Positions 4,786 through 8,169 are shown, numbered from the stretch's first letter. The stretch: DNA of 20,895 nt from a virus (IMGVR_UViG_2703718846_000002), one strand, 5' to 3'. Made by a program: numbers and translations. Notes: generated by a model not told the origin, from the sequence alone.

Positions 4786-5025
4786 ATGGGTAGCATTAAC
4801 CTGCGTATTGACGATGAACTTAAAGCGCGTTCTTACGCCGCGCTTGAAAAAATGGGTGTAACTCCTTCTGAAGCGCTTCGTCTCATGCTCGAGTATATCG
4901 CTGACAATGAACGCTTGCCGTTCAAACAGACACTCCTGAGTGATGAAGATGCTGAACTTGTGGAGATAGTGAAAGAACGGCTTCGTAATCCTAAGCCAGT
5001 ACGTGTGACGCTGGATGAACTCTGA
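4786..5025 (+). CDS. relB: RelB antitoxin
   Basis: 79-aa ORF MGSINLRIDDELKARSYA...PKPVRVTLDEL, near-identical to recalled K-12 RelB; its stop overlaps the relE start (ATGA). Confidence 0.95.
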   Translation: MGSINLRIDDELKARSYAALEKMGVTPSEALRLMLEYIADNERLPFKQTLLSDEDAELVEIVKERLRNPKPVRVTLDEL

Positions 5026-5312
5026 TGGCGTATTTTCTGGATTTTGACGAGCGGGCACTAAAGGAATGGCGAAAGCTGGGCTCGACGGTACGTGAACAGT
5101 TGAAAAAGAAGCTGGTTGAAGTACTTGAGTCACCCCGGATTGAAGCAAACAAGCTCCGTGGTATGCCTGATTGTTACAAGATTAAGCTCCGGTCTTCAGG
5201 CTATCGCCTTGTATACCAGGTTATAGACGAGAAAGTTGTCGTTTTCGTGATTTCTGTTGGGAAAAGAGAACGCTCGGAAGTATATAGCGAGGCGGTCAAA
5301 CGCATTCTCTGA
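5025..5312 (+). CDS. relE: RelE mRNA-interferase toxin
   Basis: 95-aa ORF MAYFLDFDERALKEWRKLGSTVREQLKKKL... matching recalled RelE; translationally coupled to relB. Confidence 0.95.
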   Translation: MAYFLDFDERALKEWRKLGSTVREQLKKKLVEVLESPRIEANKLRGMPDCYKIKLRSSGYRLVYQVIDEKVVVFVISVGKRERSEVYSEAVKRIL

Positions 5313-5383
5313 ACCAAAGCATGACATCTCTGTTTCGCACCGAAGGTGACACTTCTGCTTTGCGTTGACAGGAGAAGCAGGCT

Positions 5384-5539
5384 ATGAAGCAGCAAAAGGC
5401 GATGTTAATCGCCCTGATCGTCATCTGTTTAACCGTCATAGTGACGGCACTGGTAACGAGGAAAGACCTCTGCGAGGTACGAATCCGAACCGGCCAGACG
5501 GAGGTCGCTGTCTTCACAGCTTACGAACCTGAGGAGTAA
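5384..5539 (+). CDS. hokD: Hok-family type I toxin (HokD/RelF)
   Basis: 51-codon ORF below the ORF-track size cutoff, translated by hand: MKQQKAMLIALIVICLTVIVTALVTRKDLCEVRIRTGQTEVAVFTAYEPEE. Single transmembrane helix. Confidence 0.8.
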   Translation: MKQQKAMLIALIVICLTVIVTALVTRKDLCEVRIRTGQTEVAVFTAYEPEE

Positions 5540-5755: not shown

Positions 5756-6007
5756 ATGATGAACATCGAAGAACTGCGTAAAATTTTTTGTGAAGATGGC
5801 CTCTATGCTGTGTGCGTTGAAAATGGAAATCTTGTTAGTCATTACCGCATTATGTGTTTGCGAAAGAATGGGGCTGCGTTAATTAATTTTGTGGATGCTC
5901 GGGTCACGGACGGATTTATCTTGCGCGAAGGTGAGTTTGTCACTTCATTACAGGCATTGAAAGAGATCGGAATAAAAGCTGGCTTTTCTGCTTTTTCAGG
6001 AGAATAA
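5756..6007 (+). CDS. rem: Rem (Qin prophage small protein)
   Basis: 83-aa ORF MMNIEELRKIFCEDGLYAVCVENG... at the position of rem between hokD and ydfU. Confidence 0.65.
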   Translation: MMNIEELRKIFCEDGLYAVCVENGNLVSHYRIMCLRKNGAALINFVDARVTDGFILREGEFVTSLQALKEIGIKAGFSAFSGE

Positions 6008-6073
6008 ACTCATCTACAATCTTGCGCGGGGCTGAACTCCCGCTGAGTAACACCGTGCCACCGGAGAAAACCG

Positions 6074-6352
6074 ATGGCACGCAACGCAAAATATTACAAT
6101 TCTGATAATTCGCCCGTTCTTGCCTGCACGCACGGGCGGTATTCTCACGCATTCAAGTCTGAATGGTTCCAGCACCCTCCATGCACTGCAGAACAGGCCG
6201 AATGGCTGATTCATTCTTACCGCAGGCGCGGGTTCGAGGTTAAGAAAGCTCTCAGTCTCGACTATCGGCACTGGATAATCTCTGTCAGGCTGCCTTATTC
6301 CGAACGCCCACCACGTGCGTCCCGCACTTTCCAGCAACGGATCTGGAGGTAA
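6074..6352 (+). CDS. Hypothetical protein, translationally coupled to ydfU
   Basis: 92-aa ORF with a GGAGA SD 6 nt upstream. Its TAA stop is followed one base later by the GTG start of ydfU, with GGAGG inside its last codons. Confidence 0.4.
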   Translation: MARNAKYYNSDNSPVLACTHGRYSHAFKSEWFQHPPCTAEQAEWLIHSYRRRGFEVKKALSLDYRHWIISVRLPYSERPPRASRTFQQRIWR

Positions 6353-6353
6353 C

Positions 6354-7403
6354 GTGCGGGTATTACTTAGACCTGTTCTGGTGCCTGAGCTTGGGCTGGT
6401 GGTCCTTAAGCCGGGCCGTGAATCCATACAGATATTTCATAATCCTCGAGTGCTGGTGGAACCGGAACCAAAAAGCATGCGTAATCTGCCATCCGGAGTC
6501 GTTCCTGCCGTTCGCCAGCCGCTGGCGGAAGACAAAACATTGCTGCCGTTTTTTAGTAACGAACGGGTGATTCGTGCTGCTGGCGGCGTTGGCGCATTGT
6601 CCGACTGGCTATTACGTCATGTTACATCCTGCCAGTGGCCTAATGGCGATTACCATCACACTGAAACAGTCATTCACCGTTATGGTACCGGCGCAATGGT
6701 GTTGTGCTGGCACTGCGACAACCAACTGCGTGACCAGACATCGGAATCACTGGAGCTGCTTGCTCAACAAAATCTGACAGCATGGGTGATTGACGTCATC
6801 CGTCACGCAATAAGCGGTACGCAGGAGCGGGAATTATCTTTGGCTGAATTATCCTGGTGGGCGGTCTGCAATCAGGTGGTGGATGCACTACCTGAGGCTG
6901 TATCGCGTCGTTCGCTGGGATTACCAGCGGAAAAAATCTGCTCGGTGTACCGCGAAAGCGACATCGTACCGGGAGAGCAGACCGCCACCAGCATATTGAA
7001 ACAACGCACAAAAAATCTTGCACCGTTGCCTTACGCCCACCAGCAACAAAAATCACCACAGGAAAAGACGGTGGTAAGCATCACCGTTGATCCAGAGTCT
7101 CCGGAATCTTTCATGAAGCTGCCTAAACGTCGCCGCTGGGTTAAGGAGAAATACACACGTTGGGTTAAGACACAGCCGTGTGCTTGCTGCGGTATGCCAG
7201 CCGACGATCCGCATCATCTGATTGGTCACGGGCAGGGCGGAATGGGAACAAAAGCACATGATCTCTTTGTGTTGCCTTTGTGCAGAAAGCATCACAACGA
7301 GCTGCACACGGATACAGTGGCATTTGAAGATAAGTATGGCTCTCAACTGGAGCTGATATTTCGTTTTATCGATCGCGCGCTGGCAATTGGCGTACTGGCG
7401 TAA
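6354..7403 (+). CDS. ydfU: YdfU-like protein with a C-terminal HNH nuclease motif
   Basis: 349 codons from the GTG at 6354 (the ORF track extends to 6315). C-terminus reads CACCGMPADDPHHLIGHGQGGMGTKAHDLFVLPLCRKHHNELH (CxxC ... DxHH ... GG ... CxxH-H-N ... H). Confidence 0.7.
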   Translation: MRVLLRPVLVPELGLVVLKPGRESIQIFHNPRVLVEPEPKSMRNLPSGVVPAVRQPLAEDKTLLPFFSNERVIRAAGGVGALSDWLLRHVTSCQWPNGDYHHTETVIHRYGTGAMVLCWHCDNQLRDQTSESLELLAQQNLTAWVIDVIRHAISGTQERELSLAELSWWAVCNQVVDALPEAVSRRSLGLPAEKICSVYRESDIVPGEQTATSILKQRTKNLAPLPYAHQQQKSPQEKTVVSITVDPESPESFMKLPKRRRWVKEKYTRWVKTQPCACCGMPADDPHHLIGHGQGGMGTKAHDLFVLPLCRKHHNELHTDTVAFEDKYGSQLELIFRFIDRALAIGVLA

Positions 7404-7416
7404 GTGGAGAACGAGC

Positions 7417-8169
7417 ATGAACCTTGAAGCCTTACCAAAATATTACTCCCCAAAATCTCCAAAATTGAGCGATGACGCTCCAGCGACAGGCACCGGTTGT
7501 TTAACAATTACGGATGTAATGGCAGCGCAGGGGATGGTGCAGTCGAAAGCACCACTTGGGTTGGCCTTATTTCTGGCAAAAGTTGGTGTTCAGGACCCTC
7601 AGTTTGCGATTGAAGGCCTGCTAAATTACGCGATGGCACTGGATAACCCGACATTGAACAAATTGAGTGAAGAAATCCGGTTACAGATTATTCCTTACCT
7701 CGTGAGTTTTGCCTTTGCTGATTACTCCAGGTCTGCGGCAAGTAAGGCTCGCTGTGAGCATTGTTCAGGTACGGGATTTTATAATGTATTGCGCGAAGTG
7801 GTGAAACACTACAGACGCGGGGAATCTGTAATCAAGGAAGAATGGGTGAAGGAACTATGTCAGCATTGCCATGGTAAGGGCGAAGCCAGCACAGCGTGCA
7901 GAGGGTGTAAGGGTAAAGGGATTGTTCTGGATGAAAAAAGAACCCGGTTTCATGGCGTACCGGTATATAAGATTTGTGGGCGTTGTAATGGAAACCGGTT
8001 TAGTCGTTTACCGACCACGCTGGCACGACGTCATGTCCAGAAGCTGGTACCAGACCTGACCGATTATCAGTGGTATAAGGGGTATGCGGACGTCATTGGT
8101 AAACTGGTAACAAAGTGCTGGCAGGAAGAAGCATACGCGGAAGCGCAATTGAGGAAGGTGACGAGATAA
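7417..8169 (+). CDS. quuQ: Late-gene antiterminator Q (phage 82/21-type)
   Basis: 250 codons from the ATG at 7417, with a GGAGA SD. Several CxxC motifs (CEHCSGTG, CQHCHGKG, CRGCKGKG, CGRCNGN). Sits immediately before a promoter and hairpin like lambda pR'/tR'. Confidence 0.8.
   Translation: MNLEALPKYYSPKSPKLSDDAPATGTGCLTITDVMAAQGMVQSKAPLGLALFLAKVGVQDPQFAIEGLLNYAMALDNPTLNKLSEEIRLQIIPYLVSFAFADYSRSAASKARCEHCSGTGFYNVLREVVKHYRRGESVIKEEWVKELCQHCHGKGEASTACRGCKGKGIVLDEKRTRFHGVPVYKICGRCNGNRFSRLPTTLARRHVQKLVPDLTDYQWYKGYADVIGKLVTKCWQEEAYAEAQLRKVTR

Follow-up and report, generated by a model that had tools for sequence, protein, structure and literature searches.

YdfU of the Qin prophage as a predicted HNH nuclease of the nin region, and the small gene that precedes it

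What does the ydfU gene of the Qin prophage encode, and is the short open reading frame (ORF) directly ahead of it a partner in its work or a gene in its own right? Both genes lie in a 20,895-nucleotide stretch of DNA (the whole of which is called the window here), which the flanking relBE, hokD, rem, cspF/B, and essD genes identify as the cryptic prophage Qin in a chromosome of the E. coli K-12 type. An earlier note, made from the sequence alone, had recognized an HNH core near the end of YdfU and suggested that the two genes might encode a two-component nuclease or a nuclease with its inhibitor. The locus as a whole is probably explained in a plainer way, by a nuclease of the nin-region slot, a separate and real small gene, and the ordinary packing of the two in one operon.

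A good part of this answer has precedents. The His-Me finger survey of Jablonska 2017 placed DUF968 together with DUF1364/YbcO in group 7; it also named YdfU of Qin, pointed to RusA and Q as its neighbors, and proposed a NinG-like role in recombination (PMC5714182). The zinc-finger HNH motif of DUF968, as well as fusions of Orf with HNH, had been described by Curtis 2014 (PMC4118853). The HNH assignment of YdfU and DUF968 is already known, both from this literature and from PHROGs. The small upstream ORF is already annotated in RefSeq as well, and in nin regions, genes are as a rule tightly joined. No biochemical report on YdfU, YbcO, or any DUF968 protein was found in the literature searched.

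The locus and the junction of its two genes

All of the genes discussed here are on the plus strand, in the order relB, relE, hokD, rem, the 92-codon ORF, ydfU, and ydfT/quuQ, followed by cspF, cspB, and the lysis genes. The upstream neighbor, rem (5756 to 6007; 83 aa), lies outside the module and was identified from the RefSeq annotation of the identical region and its match to phrog_340. The small ORF runs from 6074 to 6352 and starts with ATG; its product is a hypothetical protein in RefSeq (WP_012304870.1), and direct reading of the sequence finds a Shine-Dalgarno-like GGAG (6063 to 6066) 7 nt 5′ of the ATG. The ydfU gene (6354 to 7403) starts with GTG and encodes a DUF968/PHROG 96 protein of 349 aa. 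The next gene, ydfT/quuQ (7417 to 8169), encodes a Q-type late antiterminator (Pfam Antiterm E 3.6e-54; phrog_127), which puts YdfU immediately ahead of Q in the nin region, as the earlier note had said.

Similarity to many E. coli prophages starts only at about position 6057, 3′ of rem. From there, the small ORF and the N-terminal part of ydfU form one mosaic block in E. coli, with breakpoints near 6057 and 7104. Near-identical copies of the gene pair are carried by inducible or free phages, for example, PhiR42_1 and HannyBb. In the cryptic prophage of K-12, ydfU and the small ORF are probably poorly expressed, since the terminator upstream of ydfU is among the strongest Rho-dependent ones in a published survey (PMC9160355). 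An anti-phage defense system was also considered for this locus and was rejected, as PADLOC returned no match for YdfU, the small ORF, or Rem.

The junction between the two genes can be read directly. The small ORF ends in TGG AGG TAA, with the stop codon at 6350 to 6352, a single base (C) at 6353, and the GTG of ydfU at 6354 to 6356, so the one-base spacing that had been reported is correct. The Shine-Dalgarno sequence of ydfU, GGAGG (6345 to 6349), falls within the final two codons of the small ORF. The whole element, GGAGG-TAA-C-GTG (6345 to 6356, plus strand), is kept in the form GGAGG-TAA-N-GTG in 90/90 pairs of the 92-codon ORF with ydfU, the deviations being single-base variants (e.g., T for C at N). 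This is the arrangement of a coupled pair, in which the stop is within a few bases of the start and the downstream Shine-Dalgarno sequence is inside the upstream ORF. Because the stop lies one base before the GTG and the Shine-Dalgarno sequence is within the two codons ahead of that stop, ribosomes that finish the small ORF probably re-initiate on ydfU, and the junction in the window very probably causes translational coupling.

The co-translation that had been read from this junction is a reasonable conclusion from so tight an arrangement, but the arrangement is generic to these operons. In other genera, the start of ydfU overlaps (ATGA) the stop of genes for a Rha/ANT antirepressor, a KilA-N protein, or RusA. 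Since ydfU overlaps with its start whatever gene precedes it, the coupling is the ordinary packing of nin-region operons and gives no sign of a dedicated two-subunit enzyme.

The small gene and its neighbors

The small ORF is a real gene under purifying selection, as its pattern of variation and its family both show. Codons 27 to 92 have a pN/pS of 0.10 to 0.16 across 27 distinct alleles, with the variation mostly at third positions; in codons 2 to 26, the value is 0.85. The final 26 codons have a pS of 0.25 versus 0.28 in codons 27 to 66, at a pN/pS of 0.10. Synonymous sites here are free to vary and the constraint is on the protein, so an RNA or DNA element behind the conserved 3′ end of the ORF was rejected.

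The conserved part is a 66-aa core (6152 to 6349, plus strand), defined by the PHROG match, pN/pS, and the AF2 model. Residues 27 to 92 match positions 1 to 66 of the 66 in phrog_1212 (E 1.7e-35), a family with no function in the PHROG annotation that is also matched by the distant members of the small-protein family. An exhaustive profile search over 1.84 billion representatives found just 102 clusters, typically of 66 aa, and for those members whose genome or phage was traced, the host is always enterobacterial. In E. coli, the Met at codon 27 has been lost, and the ORF starts 26 codons farther upstream. In the AF2 model, the pLDDT is about 90 for the core and below 50 for residues 1 to 25, and residues 1 to 26 are probably a variable, lineage-specific, disordered N-terminal extension. 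The core is modeled as a beta-alpha-beta-beta fold with a conserved basic C-terminal tail, PPRxSRTFQQRIWR. A fold search with the small protein gave no significant match, and family searches tied it to no known immunity or inhibitor family.

Some phage records label the small ORF “toxin to Rem,” the basis being those records’ annotation only; no search in this analysis supports the label. Elsewhere, the small gene is preceded by an 81-aa protein gene, and comparison of that protein with Rem gave no pairwise similarity, just a weak shared PHROG.

The small gene lies within 3 kb of RusA, YbcO, NinG, or YdfU in 79/80 viral loci sampled with the 66-aa protein as the seed. In 72 IMG/VR loci, the gene directly 3′ of it encodes RusA in 43, a YbcO-like protein in 10, NinG in 10, and something else in 9, and this downstream gene almost always overlaps the stop of the small gene by 4 to 25 nt. 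In phage mEp237, for example, the order is NinB, the small gene, a YbcO-like HNH protein, RusA, YlcG, and Q, and in SPN3UB, it is NinB, the small gene, NinG/Rap, YlcG, and Q; in both, the small gene overlaps the start of the nuclease gene that follows. This recurrence of a conserved 66-aa protein almost always ahead of a junction nuclease is a modest lead that remains from the locus.

One could consider the 66-aa protein of phrog_1212 a general accessory factor or regulator of phage junction nucleases of any family, which would either guide them, by way of its conserved C-terminal tail, to branched DNA or a protein of the host or limit their expression. The 63 of 72 loci with RusA, a YbcO-like protein, or NinG directly downstream speak for such a role, along with the tail itself, which is strongly conserved as protein while its synonymous sites vary freely. 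However, adjacency is weak evidence alone because the gene order of nin regions is kept by synteny, and lambda, DLP12, mEp460, and P1 have nucleases of these kinds without the small gene. In Erwinia phage 59, moreover, the small gene precedes a cytosine methyltransferase gene and, in PY54, an uncharacterized one, and the fold of the small protein offers no functional clue. A general accessory role is, on balance, unlikely. Given the closeness to nucleases in 79 of the 80 loci and the single mosaic block in E. coli, some functional link with nucleases is possible, and conserved nin-region gene order can explain that closeness as well. It is similarly improbable that the phrog_1212 protein is co-translated with RusA, NinG/Rap, YbcO, or YdfU and acts with them or restrains them; in that event, the invariant tail, PPRxxRxYQQRIW, might attach to branched DNA or to one of the host's proteins for replication or recombination. 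If true, a small 66-aa protein that modulates junction nucleases would be a new player in the recombination of lambdoid phages, where several nin genes are still uncharacterized.

A narrower possibility is that the 92-aa protein is dedicated to YdfU, the two forming either a two-subunit nuclease or a nuclease with an inhibitor of its own, as had been suggested for this locus. The tight stop-start junction, with its Shine-Dalgarno sequence inside the upstream ORF in all 90 pairs, and the homology block that the small gene shares with ydfU in E. coli prophages are what such a pair would look like. The two genes are also direct neighbors in divergent Klebsiella phages, where the identity is about 46% and 40%. 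Against this, most relatives of YdfU do without the small gene. Homologs of the N-terminal 250 residues of YdfU occur in 175 phage records, those of Vibrio phages and of P1 (PdcB) among them, and the small protein occurs in 58 records; among the matches listed, about 22 of the 175 records have both side by side, namely, the 20 closest relatives and the two Klebsiella phages, leaving about 87% of the YdfU-bearing records without it. Likewise, the small gene is within 4 kb of ydfU in 16 of 36 species-level genome loci and absent from the other 20. Functional phages such as mEp460 and SfV are among the carriers without it, and mEp460 has a full-length YdfU (57% identity) behind a KilA-N gene.

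The small gene is not specific to ydfU either. Genes for RusA, YbcO-like proteins, and NinG, which are unrelated or distantly related nucleases, directly follow members of the same family, and where the small gene does share a locus with ydfU, the two can be apart; in prophages of Citrobacter, Kosakonia, Phytobacter, and Buttiauxella, the order is the small gene, RusA, YdfU, and Q, and the rusA that separates the two genes in the first three of these genera speaks against a pair. The lack of a match between the small protein and any immunity or inhibitor family, or any significant fold match, points the same way. The suggestion of a two-component nuclease or a nuclease–inhibitor pair is therefore not borne out, and a dedicated pair is distinctly unlikely; the evidence says that the 92-aa ORF is a conserved phage gene in its own right and not a YdfU-specific partner.

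The colicin DNases and their immunity proteins (such as E9/Im9) are a useful comparison. As at the ydfU locus, an HNH nuclease gene adjoins a small gene in one operon. Colicin immunity genes are downstream of the nuclease gene, are specific to their nuclease, and are always present with it. At the ydfU locus, in contrast, the small gene lies upstream, most ydfU loci lack it, and unrelated nucleases share it.

YdfU as an HNH protein

The peptide on which the HNH reading was based, CACCGMPADDPHHLIGHGQGGMGTKAHDLFVLPLCRKHHNELH, is residues 276 to 318 of YdfU (7179 to 7307, plus strand) and has the pattern CACCG...DDPHH...LCRKHHNELH, which holds both the HNH (His-Me finger) core and a zinc knuckle. 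It had been described as the last 45 or so residues of the protein; the motif is indeed present, but another 31 residues follow it, so the core belongs to the C-terminal 75 or so.

Profile searches and conservation both support an HNH (His-Me finger) domain in YdfU, as the earlier reading of the motif had predicted. Residues 160 to 346 (6831 to 7391, plus strand) match Pfam DUF968 (PF06147) over positions 1 to 171 of 171, with 256.8 bits against a cut-off of 27.8 (E 1.4e-76). A profile was built from 23 YdfU homologs of 46% to 100% identity, from Escherichia, Citrobacter, Enterobacter, Buttiauxella, Kosakonia, Phytobacter, and Symbiopectobacterium, and 23/23 of these match DUF968. The Pfam model HNHc_6 gives the YdfU of the window 26.3 bits, just under the cut-off of 26.6 (E 6e-6), and is matched at E ≤ 0.01 by 21/23 of the homologs (best 1.3e-7). 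PHROG 96, “HNH endonuclease,” covers full-length YdfU (E 2.8e-171), and PHROG 131, 22514, and 7370, which carry the same label, match its C-terminus.

When the YdfU profile was compared with the PDB, the top two matches were YbcO (3g27) and the HNH domain of McrA (6ghc), with the motif in register; the PDB-wide E-values of both are weak (0.2), and the per-sequence values are about 1e-6. A PDB search with the single sequence gave no relevant match. In hhalign, the C-terminal domain aligned with a YbcO-like alignment at E 1.2e-4 and with NinG at 0.003, compared to 0.41 for the RusA control. The Pfam model of YbcO/DUF1364 (PF07102) did not match YdfU at E ≤ 1, and judged by these profiles, YdfU is related to the YbcO family without being a member of it. 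The Pfam NinG model (PF05766) did not match YdfU, and the hhalign probability was 10%; YdfU shares the genomic slot of NinG, not its family.

The residues of the motif are invariant in the 23 homologs, down to 46% identity: C276, C279, D284, D285, H287, H288, G295, G296, T299, K300, D303, C310, R311, H314, and H318. The zinc knuckle, CxxC...Cxx(H/C), consists of the invariant C276, C279, and C310, with H or C at position 313. H287, H288, H314, and H318 align with the HH...H of McrA and with the motif of YbcO, as is expected of a His-Me finger, in which a conserved catalytic His ends the first strand and a His or Asn on the helix binds the metal, and the core further includes DDPHH (284 to 288) and H302/D303. 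The AF2 model of YdfU, although of low confidence (mean pLDDT 55.8), has a beta strand at 285 to 288, another at 306 to 309, and a helix at 311 to 319. A fold search with this poor model gave Cap5 HNH as the top Foldseek match, which at E 2.1 is not significant.

An HNH-like motif need not be that of an enzyme, and the motif of YdfU might be a structural zinc finger that binds DNA or serves in regulation. Noncatalytic members do exist among HNH-fold proteins, one member of the YdfU family is labeled “transcriptional regulator” in a database, and the HNHc_6 score of the window YdfU, slightly below its cut-off, would suit a zinc finger. This is nevertheless very unlikely, since the invariant residues go beyond the zinc ligands to the putative catalytic H287/H288, H314, H318, and D284/D285, and these align with the catalytic residues of McrA and YbcO. 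A predicted nuclease is, then, the reading followed here.

Outside the HNH domain, four residues of the N-terminal region, C93, H101, C118, and C121 (6630 to 6716, plus strand), are invariant in the 23 homologs; they lie within a domain of the YdfU/PdcB type and form a putative second metal site. The possibility that this cluster is a duplicated, degenerate HNH was rejected; the alignment is suggestive, but hhalign gave E 0.054 and 1% probability.

In alignments with homologs from other genera, the N-terminus of YdfU, MR(V/A)LL, falls at their start codons. That the 92-aa ORF and ydfU are really one gene, split by a frameshift or read through programmed frameshifting, is barely credible and was rejected: the ydfU frame is open from 6279 (a 74-nt overlap with the small ORF), and an in-frame fusion of 438 aa is found in one database record only (P0002), but the two-gene TAA-N-GTG arrangement holds in 90 of 90 pairs, the synonymous sites of the overlap vary freely (pS 0.25 vs. 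0.28) and so show no constraint from a second frame or frameshift signal, homologs start at the same MR(A/V)LL behind unrelated upstream genes, and the 66-aa gene is free-standing in many phages.

The place before Q and related systems

The slot occupied by ydfU had been taken as one in which RusA- or NinG-type nucleases reside. This is right for NinG, and for YbcO, but not for RusA. Across about 200 loci retrieved with one or the other protein, YdfU was never within 3 to 4 kb of NinG or YbcO; RusA often co-occurs with YdfU, either after or before it. It follows that YdfU fills the NinG-type slot and that RusA is not its alternative. YdfU, YbcO, and NinG behave as mutually exclusive alternatives and RusA as an add-on. 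In annotation, YdfU could be labeled a His-Me finger nuclease of the NinG/YbcO slot instead of a DUF.

YdfU is thus best viewed as a predicted accessory DNA nuclease of a lambdoid prophage, at the nin-region position just before Q. Its N-terminal 250 or so residues, of the YdfU/PdcB type with the invariant Cys/His cluster, may recognize the substrate or a partner. A variable linker connects this region to the C-terminal beta-beta-alpha-metal (HNH) domain, which the zinc knuckle CxxC...Cxx(H/C) is expected to hold together. Within the domain, H287/H288 would serve as the general base, and H314/H318 (with H302/D303) as the ligands of the catalytic metal. If Rap and YbcO are a guide, YdfU most likely nicks or cuts branched intermediates of recombination or replication, alongside RusA where that is present.

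Four systems help to place this prediction. Lambda NinG/Rap, a branch-specific endonuclease in its published role, is the working model for YdfU. Its gene, too, lies immediately ahead of Q in the nin region; NinG and YdfU exclude each other, and in SPN3UB, the same 66-aa gene comes before that of NinG. It differs from YdfU in its architecture, and there is no family match between the two at the sequence level; within the His-Me finger superfamily, NinG is assigned to group 24 (PMC5714182).

YbcO of DLP12 (PF07102/DUF1364, 3g27) is closer. Like YdfU, it combines a His-Me finger with a zinc knuckle, and it is found in the same nin slot, before rusA and Q, where the two exclude each other; a YbcO-like gene can also follow the same 66-aa gene, as in mEp237. 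Unlike YdfU, YbcO is only about 96 aa long and consists of the nuclease domain only, to which YdfU adds some 260 N-terminal residues.

The Orf-HNH fusions of Listeria and Staphylococcus phages (HNHc_6/DUF968) share the C-terminal zinc-finger HNH motif of YdfU. Their N-terminal domain is Orf/NinB-like, unlike that of YdfU, and just the HNH part of the model matches YdfU.

The N-terminal domain has its own relative in phage P1, a plasmid prophage that, unlike Qin, has no nin region and no small partner upstream of the gene in question. This gene encodes PdcB, a protein that is nonessential and has no function assigned, and that is homologous to the N-terminal domain of YdfU, with 28% identity over residues 32 to 225. 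PdcB is an HNH endonuclease in RefSeq, and its gene lies just before that of the late-gene activator lpa, much as ydfU lies before Q.

Mosaic structure of the small ORF and ydfU

The ydfU gene of the Qin prophage (window 6354-7403, plus strand) encodes a 349-aa DUF968 protein. In a megablast comparison with 5,426 E. coli genomes, homology breakpoints recur at window ~6057, just 5' of the 92-aa small ORF (6074-6352, plus strand), and at ~7104, within ydfU and just ahead of the HNH domain. Since these breakpoints flank the small ORF and the N-terminal part of YdfU, both constitute a single mosaic block, and the position of the second implies that the HNH domain is swapped independently of it. 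There are at least two HNH alleles, e.g., CACCGKPADDPHHLIGHGQGG and CMTCGNQADDPHHIIGHGLGG.

Fused products are rare in the database (proteins P0002, P0003, P0004, and P0006). They are a 438-aa fusion of the small ORF with YdfU, found in one record, and a 607-aa fusion of YdfU with the late antiterminator Q, found in a few contigs. Indels or errors in assembly are the simplest explanation for both.

The N-terminal domain of YdfU

The N-terminal domain carries a second Cys/His cluster, CQWP.xDYH...LCWHCD (residues 93-121, window 6630-6716), which is invariant across the 23 homologs and probably binds a metal. When compared with the HNH motif by hhalign, the cluster aligned without significance (E 0.054, probability 1%). 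The domain is also homologous to PdcB of phage P1 (28% identity; NC_005856.1, 88955-89542), a protein that published screens found to be dispensable. The gene for PdcB lies just 5' of the late activator gene lpa, much as ydfU lies just 5' of Q.

The small ORF and its nuclease neighbors

The 66-aa core of the small ORF (window 6152-6349) belongs to the phrog_1212 family. In related loci (L122-L205 and L018-L034), a junction nuclease gene (RusA, YbcO-like, NinG, or YdfU) almost always lies directly 3' of the 66-aa gene, which overlaps the start of the nuclease gene. The gene on the 5' side usually encodes either a DUF1367 protein (annotated as NinB) or an 81-aa protein distantly resembling Rem. 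Across about 200 related loci, YdfU, YbcO, and NinG exclude each other within 3-4 kb; RusA occurs freely alongside YdfU and YbcO, and alongside NinG in only one locus.

Within the family, conservation is highest in the C-terminal tail, LP(E/Y)S..PPR..R.(Y/F)QQ(R/K)(I/M)W (alignments A3, A4, and A7), whose structure is predicted with low confidence. The tail looks like a candidate short linear interaction motif.

Some GenBank phage records (phage vB_EcoS-689R5, locus L003, and related records) name the small ORF "toxin to Rem." No support was found for a toxin or a link to Rem: searches gave no toxin-family or defense-family matches, and many loci with the small ORF are without rem.

Transcription and upstream cargo

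For the region 5' of ydfU (window 6008-6353), a published qRT-PCR survey (PMC9160355) ranks a Rho-dependent terminator among the strongest in E. coli, which implies transcriptional silencing of the ydfU region in K-12. Further upstream, the relBE (type II) and hokD (type I) toxin-antitoxin loci (window 4786-5539) immediately precede rem and share its orientation. Prophages of O157 and others retain hokD, but other cargo, such as paa, takes the place of relBE.
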